IMG/VR virus record: IMGVR_UViG_2740892232_000004
Length of the DNA: 41,358 nucleotides
Origin: a virus
Lineage: Duplodnaviria > Heunggongvirae > Uroviricota > Caudoviricetes
Direction: 5' to 3' (one strand)
Part shown: positions 3,368 through 38,563 of the stretch, one piece after another
Position numbering within the stretch: position 1 is the first letter of the stretch
How the letters are laid out: each line of letters starts with the position of its first letter
Notes under the pieces: generated by a model
The model's input: the letters and a program-made list of their open reading frames with translations, nothing else
The model's database searches: none
Told to the model about the DNA's origin: nothing
Program-made: the position numbers and the translations under genes

Positions 3368-3394
3368 CCCGCAAAATATTGCGGGCTTTTTTTT
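3368..3394 (+). terminator. Hairpin plus T-run (plus-strand terminator-like) overlapping tailspike stop
   Basis: CCCGCAA-AATA-TTGCGGG followed by T8 on the plus strand; no T-run on the minus strand. Confidence 0.35.
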
Positions 3395-7735: not shown

Positions 7736-7752
7736 ATTACCTTAAAGGTAAT
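7736..7752. repeat. Palindromic motif ATTACCT-TAA-AGGTAAT (copy 2)
   Basis: Perfect inverted repeat 19 nt upstream of the ATG of the 6988-7716 gene. Confidence 0.55.
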
Positions 7753-7845: not shown

Positions 7846-7935
7846 TTTACATCGCACTCCTCTTGTGCCATAGTAATCGGGCACTGGCAAAATCCAGTGC
7901 CGGGATTGGCGTCCCGGGTTACTAAGTGGCGCATA

Positions 7936-7957
7936 CCACGCCAGACGTGGTTTTTTT
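7936..7957 (+). terminator. Rho-independent terminator-like hairpin in a noncoding region
   Basis: CCACG-CCAGA-CGTGG followed by T7; preceded by a 9-bp stem-loop (GGCACTGG…CCAGTGCC) at about 7879-7902. Confidence 0.45.
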
Positions 7958-8113
7958 ATGCGTTAAGCACAGCTATATCCGAATTATGGTGGGCTGGGCA
8001 GGGGTCCGAAAGGACGCCGGTACCACTTAGGCCGGTACGCCAACCTTGTCCAGTTCACCACCAGTAATTGGCGTTGCGGTGGTGATTAAAATCACTAAGT
8101 GGAGATAACCACC

Positions 8114-9829: not shown

Positions 9830-9841
9830 GTGACATGTCAC
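9830..9841. repeat. 12-bp perfect palindrome GTGACATGTCAC (copy 1 of 3)
   Basis: Exact copies also at 27026-27037 and 29291-29302. Confidence 0.6.
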
Positions 9842-12473: not shown

Positions 12474-12478
12474 TTAAT

Positions 12479-14281: not shown

Positions 14282-16791
14282 TGCGGAATATCTCCGGAGA
14301 ATCTCTGACGCTTCTGTGTCAGATTAAGAACAACGGGAGAACCATCATCTTTCAGCAGATAACCAGTACCAAGTTTCACCAGGTACTGACTATCGCCGTA
14401 ACTTTGCAAACCATACTGACCAGGCGGTGTTTTTATCCCGGAGCCGACAACTTGTTCATTCCAAGCCTGATTAACCTGCTTATCGAATTGCTCTGCAGAC
14501 ATTCCCCACGGCAAAAGGACATTCCCCATTCCGTTATAGTCATGCACGCCACCTGTAGCTACGTTAACAGCCTGTTTCCAGACATCATTGTCAATTTCGC
14601 CTGATACCACGCCTTTTTTCGCCATCACACCAGCGTAATAATCCTTTGCGATCTCGTATGCCATTGATGCGCCCTGAGCGTCACCAGCAAATGCATCCTT
14701 CACCATGTCAGAAAACTCAAGGCGAAGATCAGCATCTTTAGGCATCGGAATACCTTTCGCATCATCAGTACCTTTACGAGCCGCCGCGCCAGCAAGAATT
14801 GTCTGCGCAGCGGTTTCAGGAGACACGGAAACATCCGGATTAAACCAGTTTTTTTCTGCCAAAATACCACCAGGCTTATCCATCAGTATCCCGGCAACGG
14901 CAGCAGATGGAGCGTTGGCACTGATCTGCTGTAGTGCTGACATATACACCTGCCCACCACCAGTGCTCTGCCTGATGGTATCGAGATATGCTGCCTGTTG
15001 GGAAACTGGAGCATCACGAAAGAAAACACCGATCTGATTGGCCTCGTCTTTGGAAAAGAACGTCAGTGGAGTGCCATATGACTTAGCAAGGTCACTGACC
15101 TGAGCGGCACGCAAGGCAACGCTCTGTCCAAAGTTATCCTTATTGCTCATGTCGATAGGCTTTGCCTGTCGGGAGGCAAGAGAGAACTGCACAGGATCCG
15201 ACTGCCGCTGCTTTATCACCTGATTTGCAGCCGAAACAACGTTGTCATAAAGAGTTGCGCGTGCCGCATACCCCTCCCCTGTATCACCAGTATCCGGGCG
15301 TAATTGCTCAACATATGCTGTAATGCTGCTTGTCGGCATGTTGCGGAAAGAGCCTATATACTGTCCGGCGATCTGCGTATTCTTAAACTCGGTATATCGC
15401 AGGTTTCCTTCTCTGACTCCATAAGCTGCAATAAAATCATCCTCACCAGGTGGGTTAGGAAATTCAATGCCACGCATATACGCAGCCGTCGCATCGCGAA
15501 CCCGGCTGTCGAGCATCGTTTTATATTCAGCCTGCTGTTGTCTGGCTAGTGCATCAGTCTGTCGCAACACGCTGGCCTGATCTGATTCACTTAAAGCATC
15601 GAACCAGGCTACACCGGTATAACGTTTATTTTTTGTCGGTAGCTGAGAAAGCCCCAGCGCAGCACTAACACCTGCAGTTAACTGCTGATCACTGTATGGC
15701 TGGCTACCGTTTTCATGATGGATAATGGCTGCACAAAGCGCCTTCAGGGTATCAGGATTTGATGCATCGAGAGGCTCATCAGCAGAAACGCCAAGTTGTT
15801 CGCACACTGCTTTGATATACGACATAGTGTCATTTTTATCAGTAGGCGGTGCCCAGCGATTAATTATCTCGCTGACGGTATCAATACCCTGCCGCTGATA
15901 CGACATCAGGTTCCGCCCTAATGCACGAATACCGTGTTCAGGGGTTTCGAATTTGGCAAAGCGACCATCATCACCAGTCTGCCCAACCCACGGATTAGTT
16001 TTGCTGTATTCAAGATTGCCGGGGTTATTGTTGCGTATACCGCGGGTACGATCGGAAGAGCCACTATCTGCTACAGCACGGCGAGAACCAGCAGCAGTAT
16101 CGCTTAACTCGCCGTTTTGCTGTCTTACCTGAAGATAGTTTGCTCCAATAGCATTTTGAGCAGTTGCTTTTGCTGTTGCTTCTTTAAACTCGATTTTCTT
16201 GGCCTGGATTTGCTCGTCACTCCAGCCATGTGCAATGCCGTAATCCTCAATTTGCTGGAAAGTTTGCTTATTAGCCAATACGTATGCGGCGTTGTCGCCA
16301 TACAATGCTGCGGCATTTTTACCATTGTTCAGCAGCGTAGCCTGAAACTGGCCTTCTTCGTAGGCATTTATTTGCCCTATCTCGTGCCGCCCGGCCTGCG
16401 TAGTGAACTGAATGCGCTGCTGCTGCGCCTGCTGCATGAAAGCATTACGAGCCTGTTCATCCGGCAGCGACATAGCCAGTTGTTCGACCTGAGCATCAAA
16501 CTGCTGCGTATACTCCTGACCTTTTCCAATAGCATTTTTCCCTTTCAGGTTAAGCAAACCTGTTTCAGGGTTATTCAGCAGATCGCTGCTTATCTGGCTT
16601 AAGCTAAGAGAAGCATCCTGAGCCATAGCAACATTCGCACGCTGTTTTGCCTGCGCAATAATACCTGCATATTGCTCTGCAACATCGCCAAGTACATCAC
16701 CGACATTTGGTGTCTGAAACGATGAGAATCCCTGCGTCGAAATCCCTCTGCTCTGAACCTGACGGCCCGATGTTGTTGGTACAACTGGCAT
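14278..16791 (-). CDS. Internal virion protein with putative peptidoglycan-hydrolase-type motif
   Basis: 837 aa; segment GIRNNNPGNLEY…WVG…FAKFETPEHGIRA resembles motifs I recall from virion-associated cell-wall hydrolase domains (uncertain). Confidence 0.65.
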   Translation of the reverse strand: MPVVPTTSGRQVQSRGISTQGFSSFQTPNVGDVLGDVAEQYAGIIAQAKQRANVAMAQDASLSLSQISSDLLNNPETGLLNLKGKNAIGKGQEYTQQFDAQVEQLAMSLPDEQARNAFMQQAQQQRIQFTTQAGRHEIGQINAYEEGQFQATLLNNGKNAAALYGDNAAYVLANKQTFQQIEDYGIAHGWSDEQIQAKKIEFKEATAKATAQNAIGANYLQVRQQNGELSDTAAGSRRAVADSGSSDRTRGIRNNNPGNLEYSKTNPWVGQTGDDGRFAKFETPEHGIRALGRNLMSYQRQGIDTVSEIINRWAPPTDKNDTMSYIKAVCEQLGVSADEPLDASNPDTLKALCAAIIHHENGSQPYSDQQLTAGVSAALGLSQLPTKNKRYTGVAWFDALSESDQASVLRQTDALARQQQAEYKTMLDSRVRDATAAYMRGIEFPNPPGEDDFIAAYGVREGNLRYTEFKNTQIAGQYIGSFRNMPTSSITAYVEQLRPDTGDTGEGYAARATLYDNVVSAANQVIKQRQSDPVQFSLASRQAKPIDMSNKDNFGQSVALRAAQVSDLAKSYGTPLTFFSKDEANQIGVFFRDAPVSQQAAYLDTIRQSTGGGQVYMSALQQISANAPSAAVAGILMDKPGGILAEKNWFNPDVSVSPETAAQTILAGAAARKGTDDAKGIPMPKDADLRLEFSDMVKDAFAGDAQGASMAYEIAKDYYAGVMAKKGVVSGEIDNDVWKQAVNVATGGVHDYNGMGNVLLPWGMSAEQFDKQVNQAWNEQVVGSGIKTPPGQYGLQSYGDSQYLVKLGTGYLLKDDGSPVVLNLTQKRQRFSGDIPQ

Positions 16792-23790: not shown

Positions 23791-24087
23791 TCACTCCTGT
23801 TCACTGGCCTCTTTGGCCATCTTCAAATACTGTTCAGGGCAATGCGCCATAACGCGCTGAAACAGTTCCAGCGCCAGATTGCGTTGCCCCTCATTAAATG
23901 CCATTGCCATAGCATCCATCGGAGAGATAGCGGAAAACACCCGGCCTTTCTCCAGCACCGACCAGACAACGCGACGCCCCTGTTCACTGCTCATGACAAA
24001 GCGAATGTCATCAATTTCACGCTGTGCCATGTCACGTTGCTTACGGGCGTTTTCTTCTTTCAGTTGATCGTCTTCGAAATCTGTCAT
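23791..24087 (-). CDS. Small head-assembly-module protein (98 aa)
   Basis: Translationally coupled between portal and scaffold genes. Confidence 0.55.
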   Translation of the reverse strand: MTDFEDDQLKEENARKQRDMAQREIDDIRFVMSSEQGRRVVWSVLEKGRVFSAISPMDAMAMAFNEGQRNLALELFQRVMAHCPEQYLKMAKEASEQE

Positions 24088-25763
24088 TGTGATTGCCCAC
24101 CCTGACCACTAACTGCATTCGCCATAGCTGACAAAACACTCGGATCCGAAGTTTTAGCTTCGCTTAGCGTCTTGGCACCCTGTGCCGCCGCCATCCCCAT
24201 CGCCATCATTTGTTGCTGCTGTTGTTGCTGTGCCCGTTGCTGGCGAGCCTGCTCAACCTGTTCCTGCGGAACAATGACGGTTGGAGACACTCCGGACATA
24301 TCAGCGAATGCATCGATCGCCTGATCAACGTTGAGTTTGTCGAGAGCTTCTGGTTTCGCTTGCGCAAGTTGACCAATGAAGTTAACCGTGGACGCCAGAC
24401 TGGACAGGCCGATAGACTTCTGCGCCTGAGCCATGACGGAAATGTATTCGACCTTCAGGGGCATGCCTTCCATCGCGTCAGGCGGTGTCGGCAGCATGTT
24501 TTTACGCACCATCATCGAGAAAGCGCGGTCAATGAGAGGATTAAGACATTCGTCGTTCAGACGCTCCAGAACCGGCCCCAACATCAGAAGTTTTTCTTCT
24601 TTCATTTCGATCACCGCTTCAACAGGCATCGAGCGGGTATTGATGTTCTGCAACATCATGAACAGATCGACAAAGTAGGCGCTGTTAATGATTTGACGGG
24701 TGTCCTGAATGTCTGCCACCAAATCTGCTGTACTGGGGTTAACCAGATAAGCAGGCCTGAAACCATCCTGACCAGTAATCTGATCGATATACGTGATGTC
24801 GCCAGGAAGAAGGGAGGCACGCTGATTCTTGAGGGAAGTCGGAGCAACCATCGGCGGATTGGTGGCTTTATCAATCAACTGCGACTTGCGCTTCTGGAGA
24901 AGCTGCAATGCCTTAACAGGTCCAAGCGCCAGCATACCCGGGCATGATGATCCATAAACATCTTCGCCGTTAACTTCCCAGCGCGGAGCCATAATTGGAA
25001 ACTCATCGAATCCGGACTCACGCAACAACTTGTCGTTATCGCCACCAACCTCGTAATAAACCGATTTGAATGGCTTGTTCTTGCTATCCAGCTTCGATGT
25101 ATCGCGGTCAATGTTCGGGTAAACCGAATGCATCACTTCAATCCACTTCTCGTAGGTGCCGCTTTCCCACATGCTTTTTACGGATTCGCTGACGTTATTT
25201 AGCCCGAACTCCTGAACAAGCTGACGAACAGTCATAGAGAACTTGCGAAAACAGGTGTCCACACTGCCACGAGGTGAGTTAGCCAGGTAGTAACTGCCTA
25301 TCGGGAATGGCATTGTGCGAATGATGTCCTCGTCATCCTCCAGCACCGCCATTGCACCAGTGCTGTATGTGCCGAGGCTTCCGTATAACTGCGGAAGAGA
25401 CTGGTAGAGATTCGACTTATTGAACATATCGTTCATGCGGTTCTGAACTGCCTCAAGCCACAACTTAACAGGGCCATAGTCCATCATTTCAGGATCTGGC
25501 GTAGCCAGGCGAAACCACGGACGGGCGGGGCTTGTTATGCCTGACATCATGCCGCTGGCAAGAGTGCGCGCCGCCATAGTCCCGGTCGAATCAATAATGC
25601 GTGTATTGCGTCGATCGTTACGGTTAACCTCAGAAGTCAGAAAGCGGGAACCACGCGGGTTGATGTAATCACTCAACTCGCGCCAGTGCGGCTCGAACGA
25701 CTGACGCTCGCTTTCAAGTTGTGCGAACTGTTTGTTCAATCGCTCTTTAGTTGTTTCCGCCAT
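24084..25763 (-). CDS. Portal protein
   Basis: 559 aa upstream of the scaffold/capsid genes; Gln/Ala-rich C-terminal tail. Confidence 0.8.
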   Translation of the reverse strand: MAETTKERLNKQFAQLESERQSFEPHWRELSDYINPRGSRFLTSEVNRNDRRNTRIIDSTGTMAARTLASGMMSGITSPARPWFRLATPDPEMMDYGPVKLWLEAVQNRMNDMFNKSNLYQSLPQLYGSLGTYSTGAMAVLEDDEDIIRTMPFPIGSYYLANSPRGSVDTCFRKFSMTVRQLVQEFGLNNVSESVKSMWESGTYEKWIEVMHSVYPNIDRDTSKLDSKNKPFKSVYYEVGGDNDKLLRESGFDEFPIMAPRWEVNGEDVYGSSCPGMLALGPVKALQLLQKRKSQLIDKATNPPMVAPTSLKNQRASLLPGDITYIDQITGQDGFRPAYLVNPSTADLVADIQDTRQIINSAYFVDLFMMLQNINTRSMPVEAVIEMKEEKLLMLGPVLERLNDECLNPLIDRAFSMMVRKNMLPTPPDAMEGMPLKVEYISVMAQAQKSIGLSSLASTVNFIGQLAQAKPEALDKLNVDQAIDAFADMSGVSPTVIVPQEQVEQARQQRAQQQQQQQMMAMGMAAAQGAKTLSEAKTSDPSVLSAMANAVSGQGGQSQ

Positions 25764-25777
25764 TTCAATGACTCCGG

Positions 25778-25984
25778 TTACTGACCAAGCAGCGTTTTAC
25801 CGCTGGTATTAGCGGTTGATGTGTCGCCCTGAGAACCGGTAAGCAGCGTAGAACTACGACCAGCAGCAGCGCGACGGCGACGAGTTTCTTCGTCGCGGGC
25901 ATCAACAACGGCGGCATCCTGCTCCTGTGGTGCTGCCTGAACTTCTGGTGTTGCAGGCACTGATGGTGAGCTACCCATGCACAT
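25778..25984 (-). CDS. Small protein upstream of portal (68 aa)
   Basis: ATG preceded by GGAGTCATTGAT, nearly identical to the portal translation-initiation region; Ala/Thr-rich. Confidence 0.4.
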   Translation of the reverse strand: MCMGSSPSVPATPEVQAAPQEQDAAVVDARDEETRRRRAAAGRSSTLLTGSQGDTSTANTSGKTLLGQ

Positions 25985-26073
25985 ATCAATGACTCCGTAC
26001 GCAATTAAATTATTACCAATTTAACCACATATGATTTATTTATCGTAGGTAGTTGACATTTAACGCACAAATT

Positions 26074-26090
26074 ATTACCTTTCAGGTAAC
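26074..26090. repeat. Palindromic motif ATTACCT-TTC-AGGTAAC (copy 5)
   Basis: Upstream of the portal operon; consensus TTGACA -35 hexamer on the plus strand 17 bp upstream of the left arm. Confidence 0.55.
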
Positions 26091-26401
26091 CAAAGAGTTC
26101 ATTCCGGTTACTAACCTGACTGGCTTGTCGTTAAATTGAACAGGTGGAGTGAGCTTTTATTTTGAGCAGTACGGCGTATGGCACATGCGCCGATAGCGGT
26201 CTGGATACGTTTAAGGGGCACCCTCCCTTGCTCGGGCAAACGAACCAGGTAGCCGGAATGTGCAAGTCGAGCGGTTTTATTCCGCGCACGGGGATTCACC
26301 ATCCCGGCGATTCGGTGTGACGCCTCGGAAGAGACGAGGGTACAACGATGAGAGCATTTATGGAGCCGCGACAAAGTGTGGCGCCTTAACAGGCTAAGTG
26401 C

Positions 26402-26478
26402 TCTCAGCGTTGTGGCATTAGCTCAGTTGGACAGAGCAACCGCCTTCTAAGCGGTTGGTCGCAGGTTCGAATCCTGCA
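26402..26478 (+). tRNA. tRNA-Arg (anticodon UCU)
   Basis: Folded by hand: 7-bp acceptor stem GUGGCAU/AUGCCAC, D-arm GCUC…GAGC, anticodon stem ACCGC/GCGGU with loop CUUCUAA, T-arm GCAGG-UUCGAAU-CCUGC, discriminator G, encoded CCA. Confidence 0.85.
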
Positions 26479-26531
26479 TGCCACGCCAGAATCACGCCTA
26501 AGGACCGTGATGCCAGAAGTTCCAGGTGCTT

Positions 26532-26574
26532 GGCGGTGATGGTTTCCCTTGAAGGACTATCACCGCCCTTTTTA
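26532..26574 (+). terminator. Terminator-like hairpin downstream of the tRNA
   Basis: GGCGGTGAT…ATCACCGCC stem (large loop) followed by CTTTTT. Confidence 0.5.
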
Positions 26575-26651
26575 CAGCAGGACGCCATTGCGATGACTTC
26601 ATGCTGTAAACCAGTACAGCCACGGAAGGCATAACTCATTGCTTCCAGTTC

Positions 26652-26676
26652 GCCCGGTTCGTCCGGGCATTTTTTT
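26652..26676 (+). terminator. Rho-independent terminator/attenuator immediately upstream of the 26689 gene RBS
   Basis: GCCCGG-TTCGT-CCGGGC followed by T7, then AAGGTGA RBS and ATG. Confidence 0.6.
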
Positions 26677-26688
26677 AAGGTGAAAATC

Positions 26689-27021
26689 ATGAAAGAGAAG
26701 ACTGCAGCTGAGCGCTATGCCGCAGCTATCAATGCCGCGATGGCGATTGTAAACCTGCGTGAAGAGATTAAAGATCTCCTTGCAATTATCCATAACAACC
26801 TGACATGTACAGAGTTGCTTGGCGGTCAGTACAACGGTGAGGCGGTGAAGGAGGCATTTAAAAATGCCGAGGTAGGAATAATTCCAGCAAACTATGTCAA
26901 GGCTGAATGTGTGCTCCTAAAGGCACGAGTGAGTCTGCATGAAGATCCTGGTAATCTCGGTCGAACTGCAATGCGTTACGTGATAGACGAGTCGAATGCC
27001 AAACACAATCTACCGAAATAA
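26689..27021 (+). CDS. Hypothetical protein (110 aa) on the plus strand inside the morphogenesis region
   Basis: ATG with AAGGTGA RBS; opposite strand to flanking terminase/portal genes. Confidence 0.55.
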   Translation: MKEKTAAERYAAAINAAMAIVNLREEIKDLLAIIHNNLTCTELLGGQYNGEAVKEAFKNAEVGIIPANYVKAECVLLKARVSLHEDPGNLGRTAMRYVIDESNAKHNLPK

Positions 27022-27025
27022 CACC

Positions 27026-27037
27026 GTGACATGTCAC
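27026..27037. repeat. 12-bp perfect palindrome GTGACATGTCAC (copy 2 of 3)
   Basis: Between terminase large-subunit stop and the plus-strand gene; GTAGATT lies 11 nt downstream on the minus strand. Confidence 0.6.
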
Positions 27038-27111
27038 AAACAGACAGCCTATGAGCTGGCTTTGTTTTATCCTCACCAGAGGATATCAACGACATTATCC
27101 CCACCAGCGGA

Positions 27112-28587
27112 TTAAGCATAGGGATCGTAATCTGTGATGGCCTTGCCTTGCTGGTTCTGCTGACCGGGAATTCGCAGACGCTTCGACACAGGGAACGCAA
27201 ACGTCAGCAGTAGCGCATCGCCTTTACCAGGAGAACGCCCAAGTCGCTCTTTGATATCTTCCTTCGGTTCGATAACGATTTTACCGTCCACTCGAACTTT
27301 GTACTCTGCTGCCGACAGGTCGTCCGCTGTTTCCTGGTCATCCAGCATGCCGCCCAGCCTCAGCCATGTCTTGCATGAATTGAACATCTCCCCACGCTTG
27401 TTGAGCATCTGCGGGTCAGTAGACGCGCCACCGAACGGAACAAGTTGCCATGTACGACCCCATCCGTCACCGATTGACTTCAGACCGGTTCCGTAACCGA
27501 AGTCGATGAACACCGCGTCAGCCTGATACTGGTCTTCAAAGTCAGCGATACGCTTCGCCATAATCAGATCGTCGGTAGTCTTGTTGCCAGTCCACAGCAC
27601 CTTACTGTGTAGCCCCTGCCGCAGGTATATCACCGCGTCATCAACGCCTGAATATGCCGGGTCAACACCGATTATCACCGGAGCATGCGCCACCTGCGCA
27701 GCGGTTACCACCCGTTTCATTGCCTCATCAGTAAGACCGGTAGGGATAAACTGCAATTCAGATGCATCAGGGAATATGCCGCGCACACGGATTTTAACGA
27801 AGTCGCTGTCTTCCCCGTAGTCATCAACCCATTTCTGCAACTGCTGTTTGTTAGTGCCTTCCACCGTTCGGCTGTCAATCTGCGCAGTTTTCCAGCGGTG
27901 TTTATATTTGCGGAAACATTCGCGGAAACGTCCGGTATTACGCGTCGGGTTTCCGAACGCCACCCAGATAATCTCAGTGTCTTCGTCCGTTAGTGCACCC
28001 TCGGCAACTTCCCACACCAGATCCGCAATGTTCGACGCTTCATCGAATACCACGATGATGCGTTTGCGCTCGTTGTGTAGTCCGGCGAATGCCTCAGTGT
28101 TGTGCTCAGACCAGGGGATTGCGTCAGCTCGCCACCGCTTGTCGTGTCCAGGATCATTGCTGTACATCGCGGTAGCGGTACAGGTAAACCAGTCTTTCGT
28201 GATAGCAAGGTTCGACCACTTGATAATTTCCGGCCAGGTCTTCGTTCGTAGCTGGTTGTCGGTGTTGGCGGTCACCACGACCTTACAATCCTCGCAAGTG
28301 GACATGCCCCAGTTGATCAGCATTGAGATGAATGCGGATTTACCAATACCGTGACCCGAAGCACGTGCCAGCATAAGCGGCTGATAGCGCGTCTCTGGAT
28401 TCTGCAGGTGATCACGTATCTCTCGGAACGCATCAGCCTGCCACTGACGTGGGCCGGTAGCATGTGCCAGTTCAGTCCCCTCTTCCCCCCACGGGAACGC
28501 ATAGAGGGCATAGCCAAGCGGATCGTGAGTGAACCCTGCAATATCCTCGATCAACTGCTCTTCAGGAGATAACGCTGTATCTGTCAC
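27112..28587 (-). CDS. Terminase large subunit
   Basis: 491 aa; Walker A-like SGHGIGKS; acidic nuclease-type C-terminal half; start overlaps small-subunit stop. Confidence 0.85.
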   Translation of the reverse strand: MTDTALSPEEQLIEDIAGFTHDPLGYALYAFPWGEEGTELAHATGPRQWQADAFREIRDHLQNPETRYQPLMLARASGHGIGKSAFISMLINWGMSTCEDCKVVVTANTDNQLRTKTWPEIIKWSNLAITKDWFTCTATAMYSNDPGHDKRWRADAIPWSEHNTEAFAGLHNERKRIIVVFDEASNIADLVWEVAEGALTDEDTEIIWVAFGNPTRNTGRFRECFRKYKHRWKTAQIDSRTVEGTNKQQLQKWVDDYGEDSDFVKIRVRGIFPDASELQFIPTGLTDEAMKRVVTAAQVAHAPVIIGVDPAYSGVDDAVIYLRQGLHSKVLWTGNKTTDDLIMAKRIADFEDQYQADAVFIDFGYGTGLKSIGDGWGRTWQLVPFGGASTDPQMLNKRGEMFNSCKTWLRLGGMLDDQETADDLSAAEYKVRVDGKIVIEPKEDIKERLGRSPGKGDALLLTFAFPVSKRLRIPGQQNQQGKAITDYDPYA

Positions 28588-29196: not shown

Positions 29197-29213
29197 GTTA
29201 CCGTTGTGGTAAT
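29197..29213. repeat. Palindromic motif GTTACCG-TTG-TGGTAAT (copy 6) within tandem ACTATTACCAC direct repeats
   Basis: TTACC-N5-GGTAA core just upstream of the terminase small-subunit start. Confidence 0.45.
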
Positions 29214-29290: not shown

Positions 29291-29302
29291 GTGACATGTC
29301 AC
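29291..29302. repeat. 12-bp perfect palindrome GTGACATGTCAC (copy 3 of 3)
   Basis: Lies between a TTAATA -35-like and a TAGATT -10-like hexamer on the minus strand, about 40 nt upstream of the terminator at 29222-29249. Confidence 0.6.
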
Positions 29303-29751: not shown

Positions 29752-30759
29752 TCACTTCACCTCCTGCGGCGGTTCTGGTAGCGGCATCCAGAACAAGGCG
29801 TTCCCTAACCACGATAAAGTGCCGTCGCTCAACTCCACGTATTCCCCTTGTACCTGTCCTGCCATATACTCGCCGTGCTTTGAATAAATTAAAATCCAAT
29901 CATCTTGAGGGGGCATTCGCTCACTACAGCTTATCCAACCATCCGGAGTCACCGGAAGCGAGAACGGCAGCACATCTCTGTGAACAAGTTTTTGCTGTGA
30001 CAGGTTATCCAGAACTTTCTGTACTGCTGCATCACCGAATACACCAAGCGCATCTGCCATAACTCCTACAACCTGATAAGCCTCAGCGCATACCGTGGAT
30101 AAACCATCCGGAATATCCGGATAGTTGCCTGCCAGTCTACGCAAAACAGCCTTAACAGCCTCAATACGGTCATCATCGTAACTTTCCGCCGTATCTATGC
30201 GGTCGAGCATGATGATTGCGTTATCAATATCAGGATTGCCGGTCCACTCATTACCGCGATTGGATTCGGCAGCCTGGTTGCCGCGTACTGGTTGATTGTC
30301 GGCTTTACCCAGTCTGTCGTCGCTGCATGAATGCCCTTCCAGCCAGGCCAATGCTTGTCGCATGAAATACGCAATATGTTTGCCGTGGTAATCGTCTTCA
30401 TCGATGTGAAAAGCGATACTACGAATGTATTCAATTGCGTTTTCAATGGCCTCTAACGCTATCGGCGCTGGCGGAGTGGTATATAGTTTTCGACATTTGT
30501 ATATCCAACCGGCATGGTCAGGCGTGTCTGTAAAACGCAAATCGTCTTCGTAGCACTCACGACTACGTTCTTTCCATTCCGTCCACGGAACACCGCTATT
30601 CCAGGTGGGGCGAGTGCAGGACTGATACAGAACAGGCTCTGCTTCCAGCGATGCCAGAGCAATTTCATAAGCCAGGCGCTCAATATTGTCTCGCACGTCC
30701 AGGCTGCCGATTCGCTCTCTGATTTCTTTAATCAGTTCTTTGTCGGTAAAAGTAGTCAT
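29752..30759 (-). CDS. Phage protein with DUF551-like C-terminal domain
   Basis: C-terminal W/C-rich segment (WISCSERMPP…DGTLSWLGNALFWMPLPEPP) resembles the DUF551 pattern as I recall it. Confidence 0.55.
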   Translation of the reverse strand: MTTFTDKELIKEIRERIGSLDVRDNIERLAYEIALASLEAEPVLYQSCTRPTWNSGVPWTEWKERSRECYEDDLRFTDTPDHAGWIYKCRKLYTTPPAPIALEAIENAIEYIRSIAFHIDEDDYHGKHIAYFMRQALAWLEGHSCSDDRLGKADNQPVRGNQAAESNRGNEWTGNPDIDNAIIMLDRIDTAESYDDDRIEAVKAVLRRLAGNYPDIPDGLSTVCAEAYQVVGVMADALGVFGDAAVQKVLDNLSQQKLVHRDVLPFSLPVTPDGWISCSERMPPQDDWILIYSKHGEYMAGQVQGEYVELSDGTLSWLGNALFWMPLPEPPQEVK

Positions 30760-30762
30760 GTG

Positions 30763-31050
30763 TTAGTCCTCATCCACTTCAACGCCATCTTTCAGCGTGA
30801 TGCCGTGCCAATCATCAGCCCAACTGGTTAGCCCTGGCGCATCAATGCTAGGCATATAGACGCTTGCAGTGTGGTAGCCCTTATCGTTATCAATGCTGGC
30901 AACGTGCTCGCCGTTGTATGCGCTCAGCGTGTCCAGGACGCTATAAAACTTTCCTCCGGCTGCCCTGAAATCCTTTACAGCCTTCACAAGGCGATTCCAC
31001 GCTTTTTCCTGTTCTGGCGTCAGGTCGATTAATTCCTGCAAAGTTGCCAT
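30763..31050 (-). CDS. Hypothetical protein (95 aa)
   Basis: ORF in the nin-like region, tightly packed with neighbours. Confidence 0.5.
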   Translation of the reverse strand: MATLQELIDLTPEQEKAWNRLVKAVKDFRAAGGKFYSVLDTLSAYNGEHVASIDNDKGYHTASVYMPSIDAPGLTSWADDWHGITLKDGVEVDED

Positions 31051-31051
31051 A

Positions 31052-31780
31052 TCACTCTCCTTTGATGCCTATATTTACAGCCTGGCAAGCCTCTTTGAGC
31101 ACCCAGTCAATAGCGTCTTTCCATGCTCCGGTTTCGACTGACGGATTTTCACGCTTAACCTGTTCATAGAAGCGCACTGCTTTAACCAGTCCTTCCGGTA
31201 CTACTGGCGATGGCTGTTTAGCTTCTAAATCAGCAATTCTGTCAACCACGGCATCGACAGCATCTGAAAAGCCGAACCAGTTACTCCACTCCGGTCTGTC
31301 CCCGGTTGCTGCAAAGTACATATCAGCTAAAGCAGACTCAGCATGGTCACGCTCATTGATGAGTTGCTCTTCGCTTTTCTCCAGTTCAGCAATACGATTA
31401 CTTCCATCCGAGATAACACCTTCGTAATACTCACGCTGCTCGTTGAGTTTTGATTTTGTCTCCTCAAGCTCAACACGCAGCTTCCCTACCGTTAGCGCAA
31501 TATCCTCGTTCTCCTGGTCGCGGCGTTTGATGTATTGCTGGTTTCTTTCCCGTTCATCCAGCAGTGCAAGCACGGTAGCCGGATTAGCCTTGGCAACAAA
31601 ATCCCGGACTGGCTTACAATCAATCTCCGCAATGGGTTGATACGATGTGTAGCCATGCTGTCTTGTATAACTACCGTGACGAATAACGAAAAAATCACCA
31701 TTTATTTTTTTAGCCTGCCACTTATCTTCACCGGCTTTCTCTGCCGCTTCACGCAGTGCATGATAGTTAATTTTGATCAC
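31052..31780 (-). CDS. Ea22-like coiled-coil protein
   Basis: Start proposed at GTG with GAGG RBS (track ORF extends to 31861); central coiled-coil. Confidence 0.5.
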   Translation of the reverse strand: MIKINYHALREAAEKAGEDKWQAKKINGDFFVIRHGSYTRQHGYTSYQPIAEIDCKPVRDFVAKANPATVLALLDERERNQQYIKRRDQENEDIALTVGKLRVELEETKSKLNEQREYYEGVISDGSNRIAELEKSEEQLINERDHAESALADMYFAATGDRPEWSNWFGFSDAVDAVVDRIADLEAKQPSPVVPEGLVKAVRFYEQVKRENPSVETGAWKDAIDWVLKEACQAVNIGIKGE

Positions 31781-32069
31781 TGGTTGCCTCCTTTGCTGGG
31801 CTTTCGAATGTATCAAGCTCAAACAACTTAACCACGTCATCAAACAGGACATAATCGCCATCAGAATCTTCAGTCATGTCAGCGCCACAATCCTGACCGC
31901 ACGAGTCACAACCATCCATATCAAGCTCGTATCGCTTCAGGTTTGCGATATTTGATAAATTCAGCGCCAGTACAGCCAGGTCATAAACCTCTTCGGCAGT
32001 GACATCGCTGTTCAGTCCCATTTCATGGCGATATATGATTTTTCCTACTCGTTGTTTTGTGATTGTCAT
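31767..32069 (-). CDS. Hypothetical protein (100 aa), acidic, Cys cluster
   Basis: ORF with CDSCGQDCG motif; nin-like region. Confidence 0.5.
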   Translation of the reverse strand: MTITKQRVGKIIYRHEMGLNSDVTAEEVYDLAVLALNLSNIANLKRYELDMDGCDSCGQDCGADMTEDSDGDYVLFDDVVKLFELDTFESPAKEATSDQN

Positions 32070-32614
32070 TTTTGCTCACCGCCCTGTTCTTCCAGAAAAA
32101 TACGCATAGCCTCAAGCATCTCTTCGGTGTCATACGGTGACAACTTGTCACGCAGGATGTGTTCAATGCTGTTAATGAACTTGCGGATTGCTTTGCGTTC
32201 AATTTCAGCCAGGAAAGCGTCGGTGGCTTGGGTTTCGATATCGTTAATTTCAGGAAGAATCTCTTCCCATGTAGCGATATCGCCATTCAAATGCCATCCG
32301 GCAATTCCACTGGAGTTATCCGCAACACTGCGAACGGCTTCAATAGTTTCATGCATTGCCGCATTCTCCGCTGCCAGCGCCGAAAACTTCTCGTGTGCCA
32401 ACTTAACAGCCGCATCAGCCTGCTTAATTGACTCAATCGCTTTCTGCTGGTCTTCGGCCAGCGCATTAGCACGCACCAGTTGCACTTCCAGTTGCGTTGC
32501 CAAATCGCTGATCAGCTTTGCCACACTGCGCATATCAACGGCACCACATTCTGCTTTCAGTTCCGAAGCCATCTCATGCCCGGCGGCAACTAACCCTTTG
32601 ATATTACTTTCCAT
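32066..32614 (-). CDS. Hypothetical coiled-coil protein (182 aa)
   Basis: ORF coupled to downstream gene; Ala/Glu-rich helical. Confidence 0.5.
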   Translation of the reverse strand: MESNIKGLVAAGHEMASELKAECGAVDMRSVAKLISDLATQLEVQLVRANALAEDQQKAIESIKQADAAVKLAHEKFSALAAENAAMHETIEAVRSVADNSSGIAGWHLNGDIATWEEILPEINDIETQATDAFLAEIERKAIRKFINSIEHILRDKLSPYDTEEMLEAMRIFLEEQGGEQK

Positions 32615-32675
32615 CTTTACCCTCGCTTATCCACATAACTTATTGATTACATTGATAACTAAAAAGATCGTCGAT

Positions 32676-33020
32676 TCAGAACTCTTCGATGTTCCAGCCA
32701 CCACCTGCTTTCTTTGGTTTAACCGTTACCCCGATGATTCGGAACGGATACTGATCTGCGGCGACTTTGGTTTTCACCCTGGCGTCGTCGGTCCAGAAAC
32801 CTTTCACTTCGTGCAGTTCCATCTCTCCGGTGGCGAGCATCACAGCGAAATCGGGCGTATAGAACGTGTTGTCAGCTAACCGCAGCTTGATACCCTCGAA
32901 TCGATACCAGGCGATTTCCCCTGCACGTTTACGCTGCTCAAGGTGCTGGCAATACGCAGATTCTGTTTTGTTCATCTGGCCTGTTTTGAGTCGACCAAGA
33001 GCCTGTATCTGTTTTCTCAT
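32676..33020 (-). CDS. DUF1064-like putative nuclease-fold protein
   Basis: 114 aa with …YTPDF…E…K pattern; start codon abuts palindrome copy 7, whose AGGT arm sits in the RBS position. Confidence 0.55.
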   Translation of the reverse strand: MRKQIQALGRLKTGQMNKTESAYCQHLEQRKRAGEIAWYRFEGIKLRLADNTFYTPDFAVMLATGEMELHEVKGFWTDDARVKTKVAADQYPFRIIGVTVKPKKAGGGWNIEEF

Positions 33021-33022
33021 GA

Positions 33023-33039
33023 TTTACCTCTAAGGTAAT
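33023..33039. repeat. Palindromic motif TTTACCT-CTA-AGGTAAT (copy 7)
   Basis: Two nt upstream of the 32676-33020 gene start codon. Confidence 0.55.
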
Positions 33040-33084
33040 TAAAAACCATATAAGACACGAAATCAATAGAGTTTAGAATATTTT

Positions 33085-33101
33085 GTTACCTTGTAGGTAA
33101 T
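33085..33101. repeat. Palindromic motif GTTACCT-TGT-AGGTAAT (copy 8)
   Basis: Between a weak terminator after the P-like gene (about 33111-33135) and copy 7. Confidence 0.55.
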
Positions 33102-33137
33102 TGTTGAGGCGTAAAAAAATGCGCTATCGCGCTGGTA

Positions 33138-33914
33138 TTACTTGATAAATCCTGCCGCCTTTCCCCGCCTGTATTCCTCCATCAGCCACTGCGCCGGTGT
33201 TATTCCCCCAAGGGTGGCGGCGTTAGGCATGCACCCGAAACTTCGCCCTGGTGGATGGTAAACGTCTCTCCCTGTGTCCGGAGGTGTACTCATGGGCTCT
33301 GGCTTTGCCTGTATGCTGATCACCGGATCGGGTATCTGCTGTCCGGAAGCCACCTTTTTCGCCCAATCATCGAGCAGCCTGCGCGCGTGTTTCTCAACCT
33401 CACTCTCGCTAAGCTGGCGCTGATACATTGCACGACGGGTATCACATACGACCCAGTACATAACCGGATGCCGCCACGGGAATCTTTCGGGACCACCAGG
33501 ATATAAACTTTTTTCCTTGCTGTACCGGTGAAACTCCGCCATCACATCGTCAATGGTGACGCCAAGAACCATCTTGCTGTCTTTGCACCACTTGATGAAT
33601 TGCCCTGGCGACGGCCAGAACGGAGATTCACTGGCGCGGGCGTGGCGCATACCAGCGTTAACCTGTTCCATTGTAGTGATCCCATTCTCCAGAAACGCAA
33701 GCATCCATTGCTTACGGAATTCATTAAGTTTGTTCTGCTCCCTTATGGTCGAAACGCTTGCAGGAAATGCAGCCTGTAACTGGACAAATAGTTCATTGAA
33801 AATTCTAGCAACCTGCTCCTTTTTGCCATTGCTGTCACGCCGCTCTTCATGCACAGCAACACCATGCTCACGTAAGCGATCGTACTCATTGAGAAGTTCT
33901 GGAGTTGATTTCAT
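33138..33914 (-). CDS. P: Replication protein P-like (helicase loader)
   Basis: Central region …FPAS…QNKLNEFRKQWMLAFLENGITTMEQVNAGMRHAR…PFWPSPGQFIKWC closely matches lambda P as I recall it. Confidence 0.8.
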   Translation of the reverse strand: MKSTPELLNEYDRLREHGVAVHEERRDSNGKKEQVARIFNELFVQLQAAFPASVSTIREQNKLNEFRKQWMLAFLENGITTMEQVNAGMRHARASESPFWPSPGQFIKWCKDSKMVLGVTIDDVMAEFHRYSKEKSLYPGGPERFPWRHPVMYWVVCDTRRAMYQRQLSESEVEKHARRLLDDWAKKVASGQQIPDPVISIQAKPEPMSTPPDTGRDVYHPPGRSFGCMPNAATLGGITPAQWLMEEYRRGKAAGFIK

Positions 33915-34716
33915 CCCACACCCCTTCTATCCAGTCAGTGTTATTCCAGTCAAGCTCATCGCTTTTCCCGGCATTTTTTGATTTTCCCCTGATATGATTT
34001 ACGTGCCTGGCGAATTTTTGTTCCCACTGAACCTGCGTGAACACTTTGCCCTCAGCCATCCAGTAATCCCGGAATGCAGCAAGTTCAGCAGGTGTAAATT
34101 CCGGTTCCGGCAGGGCCGTTCCCCACAGCGCAGCACGCCGCCGAAAATCTGGCGACGGTAGCCAGCCATCTGTCATCGGAAATTTCCCGATGGGTTCACT
34201 CAGGCCATCCAGAAATTCAGGTTCTGCCACCTGCAACGGCGTACTGTTCGCTTCACTGGTCGGAGCACCCTCGCGCACGTGCGCTATGTGTGGGGTTTTA
34301 TATATATCTTCCTCTTCCTCTTCCTCTGGTAACTCCTTTTGTAACGCTGTTGGCGTTACTTTTTGCGTTACTCGTTTTCTATGCTCTGCCACTCTTCTAT
34401 TCGTAAGTGCACGTTTTTTCGATGATTCTCCATTATGTCGCTCAAAGTTTGGAAGAATTAGTTTGCCGTCATGATAAGCAAGCCATCCGACGCTAATGAG
34501 GGCGTCAGCAAATCCTGTAATAAAAGCGAGTCTATCAAGTACTCCTTTTGTAACGCTGCCAGCGTTACCGTCTATTGTTTGCTGGTCAGCCCATGCCCAT
34601 ATACGAACCAGCTTTCCAAGAACAGCATCTGGATCAATACCCAGAATTTCTGCTATCTGAAAAATTTCAGGTTTATCAGGAGTGATAACTTCAACCTTAA
34701 TCCAGCTGCTTGCCAT
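33886..34716 (-). CDS. Replication initiation protein O-like (replisome organiser)
   Basis: Upstream of and overlapping P; ATG with GAGGGG RBS (track ORF starts at GTG 34734); acidic EEEEEE linker. Confidence 0.6.
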   Translation of the reverse strand: MASSWIKVEVITPDKPEIFQIAEILGIDPDAVLGKLVRIWAWADQQTIDGNAGSVTKGVLDRLAFITGFADALISVGWLAYHDGKLILPNFERHNGESSKKRALTNRRVAEHRKRVTQKVTPTALQKELPEEEEEEDIYKTPHIAHVREGAPTSEANSTPLQVAEPEFLDGLSEPIGKFPMTDGWLPSPDFRRRAALWGTALPEPEFTPAELAAFRDYWMAEGKVFTQVQWEQKFARHVNHIRGKSKNAGKSDELDWNNTDWIEGVWDEINSRTSQ

Positions 34717-37540: not shown

Positions 37541-38563
37541 ATGTCTATCAATGCACTTAAGGCAGCGGCTACCGGTAACCAAGTTGCACATCATAATGAG
37601 AAACCAACAACTCTGGCCGGACTTCTGGCAGACCCAAAAATTAAAGCTCAGATGGCTTTGGCACTTCCAAAGCACATGACAGCAGACCGTCTGGCGCGCA
37701 TAGCAACCACAGAGATCAGAAAGGTTCCAAAACTTGCATCATGCGACCAAGCCAGCTTCCTGGGGGCAATTATGCAATGTGCCCAATTGGGTCTTGAACC
37801 AGGCGGAGCTCTTGGACACGCTTACCTGATACCGTTCGACAAACGCCAGAAAGTAAATGGAAGATGGGAAACCGTATCTACAGAAGCACAGCTGATTATC
37901 GGCTATCGCGGAATGATTGACCTTGCCCGCCGCTCTGGGCAGATCCTGAGTATCTCGGCTCGTACCGTACATACAAACGACAAATTCAGCTACTCATACG
38001 GCCTGGAAGAAACGCTCGAGCATTTACCTTGCGAAACAGGTGACCGCGGAGAATTAACGCACGTTTACGCCGTTGCACGACTGAAAGATGGCGGAGTCCA
38101 ATTTGAAGTTATGAGCCGGGCAGACGTTGAGAAAGTTCGTGCACTGAGCAAAGCCGGTAGCAGTGGCCCATGGGTTGATCACTTCGATGAGATGGCTAAA
38201 AAAACAGTAATTCGCCGACTGTTCAAATATCTTCCTGTTTCTATTGAAATGCAGAAGGCTGTTGTTATGGATGAGCGCGCTGAAGCTGGACTTAGCCAAG
38301 ATAACGCAGCTGTTATCACTGGTGAATATTCCGTAGTTGACGATGAGCGTCAACACCTGTCGCCAATTTCAGATTCAGAACGAGAAGAAGCTCGAGAATA
38401 TATCATCGCGATACTTAATAGCCTGGATCCATCTGCTGAAGATGCAAAAACGATGTTCAAGCGCGCTGAAAATGAAATTAACACCATGGCTGAAAAGCTC
38501 GGTGATGAATATCACCAAAAATTCATGATGACGCTTAACGATATGCGTCCAGAATTCGAGTAA
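37541..38563 (+). CDS. recT: RecT-family single-strand annealing protein
   Basis: Blocks ALPKHMTADRLARIATTEIRKVP, IIGYRGMIDLARRSGQI, THVYAVARLKDGG, IRRLFKYLPVSIE match RecT as I recall it. Confidence 0.85.
   Translation: MSINALKAAATGNQVAHHNEKPTTLAGLLADPKIKAQMALALPKHMTADRLARIATTEIRKVPKLASCDQASFLGAIMQCAQLGLEPGGALGHAYLIPFDKRQKVNGRWETVSTEAQLIIGYRGMIDLARRSGQILSISARTVHTNDKFSYSYGLEETLEHLPCETGDRGELTHVYAVARLKDGGVQFEVMSRADVEKVRALSKAGSSGPWVDHFDEMAKKTVIRRLFKYLPVSIEMQKAVVMDERAEAGLSQDNAAVITGEYSVVDDERQHLSPISDSEREEAREYIIAILNSLDPSAEDAKTMFKRAENEINTMAEKLGDEYHQKFMMTLNDMRPEFE

Follow-up and report, generated by a model that had tools for sequence, protein, structure and literature searches.

What is encoded by a plus-strand island that interrupts the minus-strand late operon of a temperate phage? 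The question is raised by the viral sequence IMGVR_UViG_2740892232_000004 (Caudoviricetes; 41,358 nt, analysed over its whole length and hereafter called the window), which by BLAST belongs to the phiV10/epsilon15 group of temperate podoviruses (Uetakevirus). The initial annotation, made from the sequence alone, had described the island as a GC-rich leader of about 300 nt followed by a phage tRNA-Arg(UCU), two terminators and a 110-aa gene, and had noted a change of coding strand between the terminase and portal genes. The strand change is real: the minus-strand TerL, portal and gp3-like genes bracket the plus-strand island. Except for one replaced segment, the island region is 97–98% identical to phiV10, vB_EcoP_ZX5 and O157 typing phages. 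The view of the stretch upstream of the tRNA gene as a mere leader has to be abandoned, because this stretch is an autonomous, widely distributed structured RNA family and constitutes the main content of the locus.

A covarying RNA with two pseudoknots

Positions 26172–26414 of the window hold a conserved structured RNA of about 245 nt with six helices (P1 to P6) and two pseudoknots (PK1 and PK2), whose elements are given in Table 1. In the alignment of homologues, invariant blocks alternate with hairpins of differing sequence and length. The several hairpins mentioned in the initial annotation are present, but this wording understates a covarying multi-helix RNA (minimum free energy z-score of -2.95 on the plus strand).

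Covariation was counted in 37 non-redundant cores, and for helix P6 in an RNAalifold structure of 29 sequences. The covariation score is 0.262 compared to 0.114 ± 0.008 in shuffled alignments, and none of 500 shuffles reaches it. When the pairing partners are slid by 1–3 columns, pairing falls from 90% to 28–52% and the score to at most 0.07. Both sides are changed in 12 pairs, and P1, P2, P4, PK2 and P5 all covary. The P1 stem shows G-C to A-U replacements in 15 of the 37 cores, together with G.U wobbles and one C-G swap. P2 has C-G to U-A replacements in 12/37 and G-C to A-U in 3/37, next to invariant G-C and C-G pairs in alignment columns 30–31; most of its apical loops carry a YCCUUG motif that is not found in the copies of the phage P1 type. 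In PK2, C-G is replaced by A-U in 5/37 cores (CACC:GGUG to AACC:GGUU) on differing P3 and P4 backgrounds. Three of the five P5 pairs have changes on both sides (U-A to C-G, C-G to G-C) around a conserved loop. Six P6 pairs change on both sides; this helix encloses an insert of 74–210 nt, its final three pairs take the first three nucleotides of the tRNA, and it is missing from the phage P1 copies and short in D6. The P3 hairpin differs in sequence and length among homologues, and its alignment is too poor to count pairs. PK1 never varies, so the case for it consists of its invariance and of the same pairing being chosen by RNAalifold. G.U pairs are frequent and would turn into C.A if the complementary strand were read, which identifies the plus strand as the RNA strand. 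The domain is thus a real covarying structure, read in the plus direction.

Several further structural candidates were rejected. A nested alternative proposed by RNAalifold for the 5' part is contradicted by a double change in one locus (L152) that favours the local P1 hairpin. A tertiary pairing of the P2 apical CUUG with CAAG of the invariant strand is unsupported, as the copies of the phage P1 type lack CUUG. An integron-like core site (GTTRRRY) does not fit the sequence and comes without an integrase. The 3' strand of P6 (26397–26409; UGCUCUUU in many variants) was compared to boxA (UGCUCUUUA), but the strand is engaged in base pairs and lacks conservation in its UUUA part, so that the resemblance is probably a coincidence.

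One could also read the conserved stretch as a small protein gene, for example the 87-aa minus-strand ORF (open reading frame) at 26111–26374, or as a DNA-level recombination or boundary site. Hypothetical proteins such as mEp460 gp37 and mEp390 gp36 are indeed annotated over it, some frame is open throughout in 31 of the 37 cores, and a deletion in epsilon15, described below, shows that repeats in this region recombine. Against this, the longest open frame switches strand (19 minus, 18 plus) and phase, and cores of every mod-3 length class occur (17/11/9). What the minus-strand ORFs of phage cdtI and the window have in common is limited to a part with near identity at the nucleotide level, after which they diverge. 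The stem substitutions are compensatory, with G.U pairs on the plus strand only, and the orientation of the RNA always matches local transcription in the contexts compared. We consider a protein-coding or DNA-level role extremely improbable. The absence of a convincing ORF, as originally described, therefore holds: the stop-free stretches within 26111–26397 are not conserved as reading frames, and frame, strand and length class all vary among homologues, so no conserved small protein was found in 26100–26400. Hypothetical proteins are annotated over the RNA or its neighbouring cargo in three records (3943–4311, minus strand, in L003; 2511–2753, plus strand, in L016; 2698–2868, plus strand, in L010; named mEp460 gp37, mEp390 gp36 and SopranoGao gp01); these are probably mis-annotations.

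Distribution and novelty of the RNA family

A distant BLAST search with 26060–26411 matched 86 phage records at 70–83% identity, and almost none of the matching regions is annotated. The lambdoid matches include cdtI, mEp460, mEp390, 2H10, Ayreon, 1720a-02 and the converting phages of Shiga toxin (Stx) types Stx2c and Stx2a. Further matches were found in P1, P7, D6, SJ46 and RCS47, in Klebsiella, Enterobacter and Salmonella phages, and in one Stenotrophomonas phage. An exact-match scan detected the invariant 19-mer GGTAGCCGGAATGTGCAAG in at least 120 viral contigs. A relaxed two-block pattern gave 23 loci in GTDB species representatives, all of them from Enterobacterales except one 1.7-kb contig binned as a Bacillota metagenome-assembled genome. 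Of 5426 complete Escherichia coli genomes, 1840 (34%) carry the RNA, in 1920 chromosomal and 554 plasmid places; among the E. coli matches listed, the only annotated feature beneath the RNA is the adjacent tRNA-Arg.

A covariance model of the RNA core (R1) found exactly one match in each of 54 loci, 53 of them scoring 116–166 bits and the epsilon15 remnant scoring 40 bits. The single real match in the window has 146 bits; a second one on the minus strand (37650–37788, E 0.07) breaks pairs and was treated as noise. A covariance-model search, proposed in the initial annotation for 26090–26400, identified no known family: none of the 4227 models of Rfam 15, including GOLLD, ROOL, YrlA, riboswitches and ribozymes, matches the plus strand of 26090–26411 at E up to 10, and at gathering thresholds no family matches the RNA or the neighbouring cargo in 12 other loci. 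In the whole window the Rfam matches are the tRNA and, elsewhere, isrK and C4. Four motif strings of the RNA are absent from searchable papers. The family is not covered by the 'Minerva' preprint on new non-coding RNAs, and the vB_EcoP_ZX5 paper (PMC9782041) does not mention the region apart from the tRNA. The prophage small RNA svsR is distinct: it corresponds to 77 nt within cI, at the 3' end of that gene. Searches for work on P1 ban transcripts and on N in Stx2c phages gave nothing of use. Hence a widespread structured RNA family of temperate enterobacterial phages is apparently undescribed; 34% of complete E. coli genomes carry this conserved pseudoknotted RNA, as do Stx2-converting phages and P1-like plasmids, and it is unannotated, is missing from Rfam, and our searches turned up no publication on it.

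Position downstream of repressor-controlled early promoters

The genomic position of the RNA is most informative in lambdoid phages. In cdtI the cI gene ends at 3882 and has its own terminator; it is followed by a promoter (TTGACA-16-CATAAT, 11 of 12 matches) with a palindromic operator. The RNA starts about 45 nt after the -10 box. Behind it lie a cargo RNA, a strong terminator and a long hairpin, and the first ORF, at 4549, comes next. The analysis of this region revealed neither a further plus-strand promoter nor an N-like gene. The same order of repressor gene, RNA and early-left genes is observed in mEp460, mEp390, 1720a-02, the Stenotrophomonas phage and Stx2a_WGPS2, none of which has an N gene. 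The lambdoid phages examined that carry the RNA lack an N gene next to pL. In N-less lambdoid phages, including Stx2a and Stx2c phages, the RNA would be the first thing transcribed from pL. Phage P1 keeps only helices P1 to P5, without cargo, just after tRNA-Ile and before ban; this copy belongs to the ban operon, which is under C1 control through C1 operators at its promoters.

A promoter-like site was predicted within 200 nt upstream of the RNA in 45 of 130 contexts compared to 24 of 244 controls, typically 50–55 nt from helix P1. At least one predicted intrinsic terminator precedes the next same-strand ORF (of at least 70 aa) in 101 of 121 downstream contexts. Both the promoter and the terminator scans are crude.

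In the window, the consensus -35 box reported in the initial annotation is present, and it is paired with a weak candidate -10 box: TACCTT is the only -10 at 17-nt spacing from TTGACA and was not called by a consensus scan. Both hexamers are conserved across Uetakeviruses. The -10 box is overlapped by a copy of the palindrome TTACC-N5-GGTAA, which occurs 13 times in the window compared to 0.53 expected (an approximately 25-fold excess) and is clustered in intergenic regulatory regions. Its sites include 6617, 7737, 7830, 8897, 26075, 29198, 33024, 33086, 35325, 35373, 36085 and 36147. The palindrome is found at the immunity and antirepressor regions, and the copy at 29198 is near the start of TerS. 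The palindromes are presumably operators of the phage repressor. In the epsilon15 record (L005) a repressor site is annotated at 1825–1854, 150–190 nt downstream of gp3; it aligns over the -35 box of the corresponding promoter, slightly upstream of the TTACCTTTCAGGTAA palindrome. The direct repeat AAATTATTACC around the -35 box has 0.65 matches expected at up to one mismatch, and its region is kept in Klebsiella, Salmonella and Enterobacter relatives. The 5' leader between promoter and RNA is conserved with Klebsiella, Enterobacter and epsilon15 relatives and absent from the lambdoid and P1 copies; an RNase III site is annotated within it in the epsilon15 record.

Because the promoter overlaps the 13-copy operator palindrome, the island looks like an early, repressor-controlled unit and not like a moron expressed in lysogeny, as was implicit in the initial annotation. 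For the contexts with an identifiable promoter, that is, lambdoid pL, the P1 ban operon and the window, the common denominator is a repressor-controlled early promoter.

Junction with a tRNA or another cargo RNA

The 5' domain ends in GCGUUGUGG and leads directly into what we call the cargo slot. In 26 of 87 distinct downstream contexts tRNA-Arg begins inside this motif (in the window, at G26412). In another 52 of the 87 the slot holds an unrelated non-tRNA RNA of 71–202 nt closed by a GUUGUGG...CCACAAC stem, and the GCGUUGUGG motif forms the 5' strand of that stem. The three non-tRNA cargos examined (the cdtI, mEp460 and L130 types) have a hairpin stacked against the 3' strand of the closing stem. 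Among relatives, the 5' acceptor strand does not vary (GUGGCAU), whereas its 3' partner has drifted towards wobble pairs, which fits a double constraint on the 5' strand.

Many non-tRNA cargos share sequences at their ends. In L003, L010, L022, L079 and others, about 250–350 nt past the core, the 5' part carries GUGGUGAAUGCGCAGGCUGAUGCGC, which is acceptor-like and D-arm-like. Many share at the 3' side GCAAGCCGGAGAUCAGCACCGGCCACCACAAC, a 5-bp stem beside the closing strand, and GCCGGAGATC recurs in 32 loci. Neither a tRNA nor another Rfam family was detected in the cargos sharing GUGGUGAAUGCGCAGGCUGAUGCGC or GCAAGCCGGAGAUCAGCACCGGCCACCACAAC. In SPN1S (L014, 1665–1770), and also in L015 and L019, the P6 insert has two T-arm-like hairpins, CTGGTTCAATTCCAG and GTCCGTTCGATTCGGAC, the first of them followed by ...CCCA; both resemble tRNA 3' halves, either as remnants or as mimics.

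The tRNA-Arg(UCU) of the initial annotation was recovered by ARAGORN (anticodon tct at position 35) and by the Rfam tRNA model (RF00005; 73.3 bits, threshold 29). As originally proposed, it is phage cargo and not the attachment site. Of its 77 positions, 11 differ from K-12 argU, and all of these changes fall in compensated stems; the tRNA is thus not identical to the host copy (no specific search for flanking repeats was made). It occurs in only 508 of 5426 E. coli genomes, it occupies the same slot in Klebsiella and Salmonella relatives, and vB_EcoP_ZX5, with a leader identical to that of the window, integrates at guaA (PMC9782041).

The suggested decoding of rare AGA codons is borne out in part. 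The ORFs of the window use 7.7 AGA and 3.9 AGG per 1000 codons, several-fold more than the approximately 2 and 1 per 1000 codons of E. coli. The AGA-rich genes are the tail-end genes (3393–6512, 9999–16791) and the early genes (29752–34716), while the adjacent head, portal and terminase genes have almost no AGA or AGG. AGA decoding therefore holds, but not specifically for the adjacent late genes.

Given this tight junction, the 5' domain could be a scaffold that only aids the maturation or stability of the downstream tRNA or cargo. It abuts tRNA nucleotide 1, P6 overlaps the acceptor stem, and the same tRNA-Arg recurs in 26 of the 87 contexts, all of which would fit. We nevertheless find this role quite improbable. 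Most copies of the domain have no tRNA, and the phage P1 copies retain P1 to P5 at about 80% identity without any cargo. The domain is more strongly conserved than the cargo, and host and other phage tRNAs need no such leader.

Terminators and an exchangeable ORF downstream

The two terminators placed after the tRNA by the initial annotation, the second directly before a ribosome binding site, were confirmed (T1 stem at 26532–26567, T2 stem at 26652–26668, Shine–Dalgarno sequence, SD, from 26677). Four terminator-like sites were found compared to 2.2 expected in shuffles. The T1 loop, UCCCUUG, is the same motif as the P2 apex. Hairpin H8 follows 23 of the 26 tRNA cargos and 16 of the 52 non-tRNA cargos, and in the lineages that have it the order is H8, T1, H9, H10, T2, SD and ORF. 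H9 and H10 are conserved across the E. coli, Klebsiella, Salmonella, Kosakonia and Citrobacter copies. Together with T2 (26574–26676) they resemble an Hfq-type small RNA of about 100 nt, with three hairpins and a U tail; a comparison of this region with databases returned only a sub-threshold RyhB-like score (E 0.24).

The predicted 110-aa gene is in place (ATG at 26689, end at 27021; an alternative GTG start at 26680 would give 113 aa). Its product belongs to PHROG 27507, of unknown function (E 4e-75), and has no Pfam or PADLOC match. T1, T2 and SD are kept as a unit before at least eight different, unrelated ORFs. In phiV10 this socket holds a gene of the Sf6 gp66/N4 gp49 family, with breakpoints exactly at the SD and at AATAACACCGTGACATGTCAC. 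The 110-aa gene is therefore one of many interchangeable cassettes. As in morons, a small exchangeable accessory ORF lies on the opposite strand within a late operon; unlike in morons, the ORF does not have its own promoter (no promoter-like site was found by the scan between T1 and the ORF) and is preceded by two terminators and by conserved non-coding RNA of about 600 nt, under a promoter with a phage operator.

In epsilon15 (2047–2152 in L005) helix P1 and half of P2 are joined directly to the 3' half of T1. The deletion spans the region from the invariant strand to H8 and removed the rest of the RNA and the tRNA. It arose by recombination between UUCCCUUGAUGCU copies shared by the P2 apex and the T1 loop in that lineage.

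A terminator immediately before a ribosome binding site had been taken to suggest attenuation. The conservation of the T1, T2 and SD unit before so many cassettes makes such control plausible, but we found no competing pairing in which the T1 or T2 stem would be broken, and the alternative between P6 and the closing stem does not involve them. In a more specific version, the 5' domain would be a riboswitch-like sensor that binds a small molecule, a tRNA or a protein and decides whether transcription stops at T1 and T2. GUUGUGG would pair either with the 5' YRCAAC strand of P6 or with the 3' CCACAAC strand (or the tRNA 3' strand), the two being mutually exclusive. The aptamer-like architecture with pseudoknots and invariant junctions agrees with this, as do the capacity of GUUGUG to pair with either partner (26341 is always Y and 26342 always R, which pairing with G and U requires), the repetition of the P2 apical UCCCUUG in the T1 loop, and the terminators directly upstream of the ribosome binding site. 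On the other hand, T1 lies at least 120 nt past the conserved core with an unrelated cargo of 71–202 nt in between, unlike in known expression platforms, the phage P1 copies have neither P6 nor cargo, and the downstream ORFs show no functional theme that would hint at a ligand. A sensor of this kind therefore seems unlikely.

A candidate put-like antiterminator

The RNA is the first to be made from an early promoter, it is followed by terminators, N is missing, and no protein gene is shared among its neighbourhoods; these features point to an RNA acting on the transcribing polymerase. Such an RNA is known in HK022, whose put hairpin loop moreover engages in extra pairing (PMC9378689), while a 2025 study of N-less phages could only guess at a put-like mechanism (PMC12315714). 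We speculate that the RNA is a put-like, cis-acting antiterminator that is released by RNase P, without being a member of the put family. We assign this reading a probability of roughly 0.4.

In the proposed scheme, the unit would consist of promoter and operator, leader, RNA domain, tRNA, a hairpin, T1, two hairpins, T2, SD and an exchangeable ORF. The nascent RNA domain would fold and act in cis on the polymerase that made it, as does HK022 put, whose cis read-through of terminators is blocked by mutations in the zinc-binding domain of the beta-prime subunit. The polymerase would become resistant to T1 and T2 or, in the lambdoid relatives, to the terminator or terminators between pL and the early-left genes, so that the downstream genes would be expressed from this promoter only. 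RNase P would then cut at the 5' end of the tRNA or of the cargo RNA that substitutes for it and detach the domain, leaving P6 as a protected 3' end; such a release is suggested by the flush junction, in which the domain ends at tRNA nucleotide 1 or at the stem-closed cargo. The tRNA would supply AGA decoding for the AGA-rich tail and early genes.

The likeness to put begins with location. Like put, the RNA is encoded in cis, with a repressor-controlled early promoter of an N-less lambdoid phage just before it and terminators after it. In cdtI the distance from the pL-like promoter is about 45 nt, a terminator precedes the first ORF, and N is missing; in the window there is an operator-overlapping promoter upstream and T1 and T2 downstream. 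HK022 putL and the putL-like site of HK639 start with A-CGGCG-(12 nt)-AUG-CGUCG, and P1 of the cdtI-type copies reads A-CGGCG-(8 nt)-AUG-CGUCG. The shared ACGGCG...CAUGCGUCG forms a 5-bp stem including a G.U pair at the same position after pL. Among the matches listed for this gapped stem motif, most of which come from viral contigs, the two families account for 65 + 31 (96) of 162, and the rest look random.

There are clear differences. The put sites have about 70 nt and two stems (126 nt as annotated in HK639) compared to about 245 nt, six helices and two pseudoknots here, and put has nothing that corresponds to the invariant GGUAGCCGGAAUGUGCAAG and GGCGAUNCGGUGUGAC strands. The new RNA is fused to a tRNA or a stem-closed cargo and is also found in P1-like and epsilon15-like phages.

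The following points weigh against the antitermination scheme. Its functional steps are all ones that we infer. Neither the full model (R1) nor a model of helix P1 alone (R2) matches the put sites of HK022 and HK639 at E up to 10, so that the resemblance is at the motif level only, and it was noticed post hoc. The RNA is present in a single copy, in contrast to put phages, which have sites in both early operons. No terminator was predicted in 20 of the 121 downstream contexts. In the window only the 110-aa ORF lies downstream on the plus strand, so that antitermination would serve one small gene, and leaky terminators damping this ORF explain the layout equally well; it is the lambdoid contexts that make antitermination attractive. 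With its two pseudoknots and invariant joining strands the fold is more complex than put requires, and it would suit an RNA that binds a ligand or a protein just as well. Since there are no model matches, no put counterpart for the rest of the RNA and only a single copy, we do not assign the RNA to the put family.

The resemblance between GGAAGAG in the P5 loop and the apex of put stem II is in a different register (loop versus loop plus stem) and appears coincidental. In the HK639 record (L160) an 'M3-like RNA' is annotated at 37910–37969, after cII in the pR operon.

Many of the same features could belong to a stable trans-acting RNA. The unit would then serve to produce the tRNA and the 245-nt RNA in large amounts during early lytic growth, with the transcript ending at T1 and the RNA freed by RNase P. 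The RNA would bind some factor of the host or the phage; it might, for instance, be a sponge or decoy that occupies a nuclease, a tRNA-handling enzyme or a defence protein. The downstream ORFs would receive leak-through only. A complex fold with invariant single strands is typical of partner-binding RNAs. The same RNA is found in podovirus, siphovirus and myovirus backgrounds without a common neighbouring protein gene, it is tightly fused to a tRNA or stem-closed cargo, with T-arm-like hairpins in some P6 inserts (GGTTCAATTCC, GTTCGATTCGGAC), and in most contexts a strong terminator follows. GOLLD and ROOL provide precedents of large phage RNAs beside or enclosing tRNAs. No partner was identified, and a trans-acting role leaves unexplained why the lambdoid early-left operon lies wholly behind the RNA and a terminator, with no other promoter found, and why so many lineages keep T2 and the SD of the accessory ORF firmly joined. 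We regard it as possible rather than likely.

Returning to antitermination, a broader formulation may be offered tentatively: the 245-nt RNA could represent a new class of nascent-RNA regulators of RNA polymerase, a larger relative or analogue of put with a tRNA or tRNA-like module as RNase P release site, serving as the early antitermination device of N-less lambdoids, P1-like prophages and epsilon15-like podoviruses.

Comparison with other phage RNAs and possible significance

GOLLD (RF01998) and ROOL (RF03087) are phage-borne, elaborately folded RNAs of unknown function that are typically located beside tRNA genes, and GOLLD can enclose a tRNA. The new RNA differs in having no Rfam match, in its much smaller size, in its location at early promoters, and in being confined to Enterobacterales phages as far as scanned. 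By analogy with the tRNA-like processing modules of MALAT1/mascRNA and with the stable RNAs of the T4 tRNA cluster, a tRNA or tRNA-like fold directly behind the RNA could allow RNase P to set the 3' end of the upstream structured RNA, which ends in a stable helix. No triple-helix element is recognisable in the upstream RNA. Phage tRNA-Arg(UCU) genes such as argN and argO of Stx phages, and the P1 tRNAs, are likewise accessory and decode rare AGA and AGG codons, and the genes of the window are AGA-enriched. In contrast to them, the tRNA of the window is welded to a structured RNA, lies between terminase and portal, and is under an operator-controlled promoter.

The RNA occupies the place of lambda nutL and N and of HK022 putL, and is thus a concrete candidate for the means by which N-less phages pass the early-left terminators. 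If it controls early transcription, it bears on the induction and toxin output of Stx phages; a nascent-RNA regulator of this kind would operate in roughly one in three sequenced E. coli strains. Should it instead be released and bind a host factor, it would be a further tRNA-linked phage RNA of obscure purpose beside GOLLD and ROOL, and one found in the most tractable host. The terminator-terminator-SD socket with its exchangeable ORFs constitutes a natural expression platform.

Features of the island and other sites in the window

Table 1. Features of the terminase–portal island and its flanking genes; positions refer to the window.
Feature	Position	Strand	Remarks
Portal/head-tail adaptor	24084–25763	minus	flanks island
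gp3-like ORF	25778–25984	minus	flanks island
Direct repeat AAATTATTACC	26007–26017; second copy 26069–26079	+	two exact copies around -35
Candidate sigma-70 promoter	26054–26082	+	-35 TTGACA 26054–26059, 17-nt spacer, -10 TACCTT 26077–26082
Operator palindrome TTACCTTTCAGGTAA	26075–26089	.	overlaps -10 and likely start site
5' leader, long imperfect hairpin CAGGTAACC...GGTTACTAACCTG	26090–26167	+	Uetakevirus-lineage specific
P1 hairpin CGGCG-UAUGGCACAUG-CGCCG	26172–26192 (26172–26176 with 26188–26192)	+	covariation
PK1	loop GCACAU 26181–26186 with AUGUGC 26258–26263	+	bases invariant
P2, long hairpin of variable length	26196–26253 (26196–26197, 26200–26204 with 26245–26249, 26252–26253)	+	covariation
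Invariant joining strand GGUAGCCGGAAUGUGCAAG	26248–26266	+	identical in all BLAST-found phage homologues
P3, variable hairpin (GCGG/CCGC in the window)	about 26267–26288	+	hairpin here in most homologues
P4 hairpin, loop UUCACCA	26291–26294 with 26302–26305 (P4 and PK2 span 26291–26317)	+	both-side changes in 3/4 pairs
PK2	P4-loop CACC 26297–26300 with GGUG 26314–26317	+	covariation
P5 hairpin CCUCG-GAAGAGA-CGAGG	26323–26339 (26323–26327 with 26335–26339)	+	covariation
P6, long-range helix UACAACGAUGAGAGCA...UGCUCUCAGCGUUGUG around variable insert	26341–26414 (26341–26356 with 26397–26414)	+	RNAalifold
tRNA-Arg(UCU), encoded CCA, cargo slot of the family	26412–26488	+	ARAGORN and Rfam
H8 hairpin AUCACG-CCUAAGGAC-CGUGAU (loop also given as CCUNAGGAC)	26491–26511	+	fixed offset after cargo
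Terminator T1	26532–26575 (14-bp stem 26532–26567 and CTTTTT)	+	-22 kcal/mol; loop UCCCUUG
Hairpins H9, H10	26574–26607, 26624–26646	+	conserved between the two terminators
Terminator T2, GCCCGG-UUCGU-CCGGGC and AUUUUUUU	26652–26676	+	stem 26652–26668, tail ATTTTTTT as DNA
SD AAGGUGA and 110-aa accessory ORF	26677–27021 (SD 26677–26683, ATG 26689)	+	PHROG 27507
Palindrome GTGACATGTCAC	27026–27037	.	exact copies also at 9830–9841 and 29291–29302; 24024–24035 with one mismatch
Short hairpin CAGCCTATGAGCTG, closes island	27045–27070	.	T-rich tails on both strands; called by the scan on the minus strand
TerL	27112–28587	minus	flanks island

Transcription of the late operon should not be halted by T1 and T2, since neither has a T run when read on the minus strand; the sole minus-strand terminator-like site within the island is a weak hairpin at 27058–27045. 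On the plus strand, the hairpin that closes the island is followed by GCTTTGTTTTAT, and a terminator is annotated here in phiV10.

The copy of GTGACATGTCAC seen after the 110-aa gene in the initial annotation is present and has two further exact copies in the window, giving three compared to about 0.005 expected by our own arithmetic. The copies mark boundaries of the minus-strand late operon: one follows the last structural gene, another follows TerL, and the third lies immediately upstream of TerS. This palindrome may be a regulator site.

In the Enterobacter phage Tyrion (L007) the terminase–portal island contains an int-alpA RNA (RF02996, 44 bits) at 3708–3772, downstream of accessory ORFs. 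Elsewhere in the window, Rfam models identified isrK (67.7 bits, 7881–7957) and C4 antisense RNA (66 bits, 7982–8065) on the plus strand; this region is an antirepressor control region similar to P1 immI, and is flanked by the TTACC-N5-GGTAA operators at 7737 and 7830.

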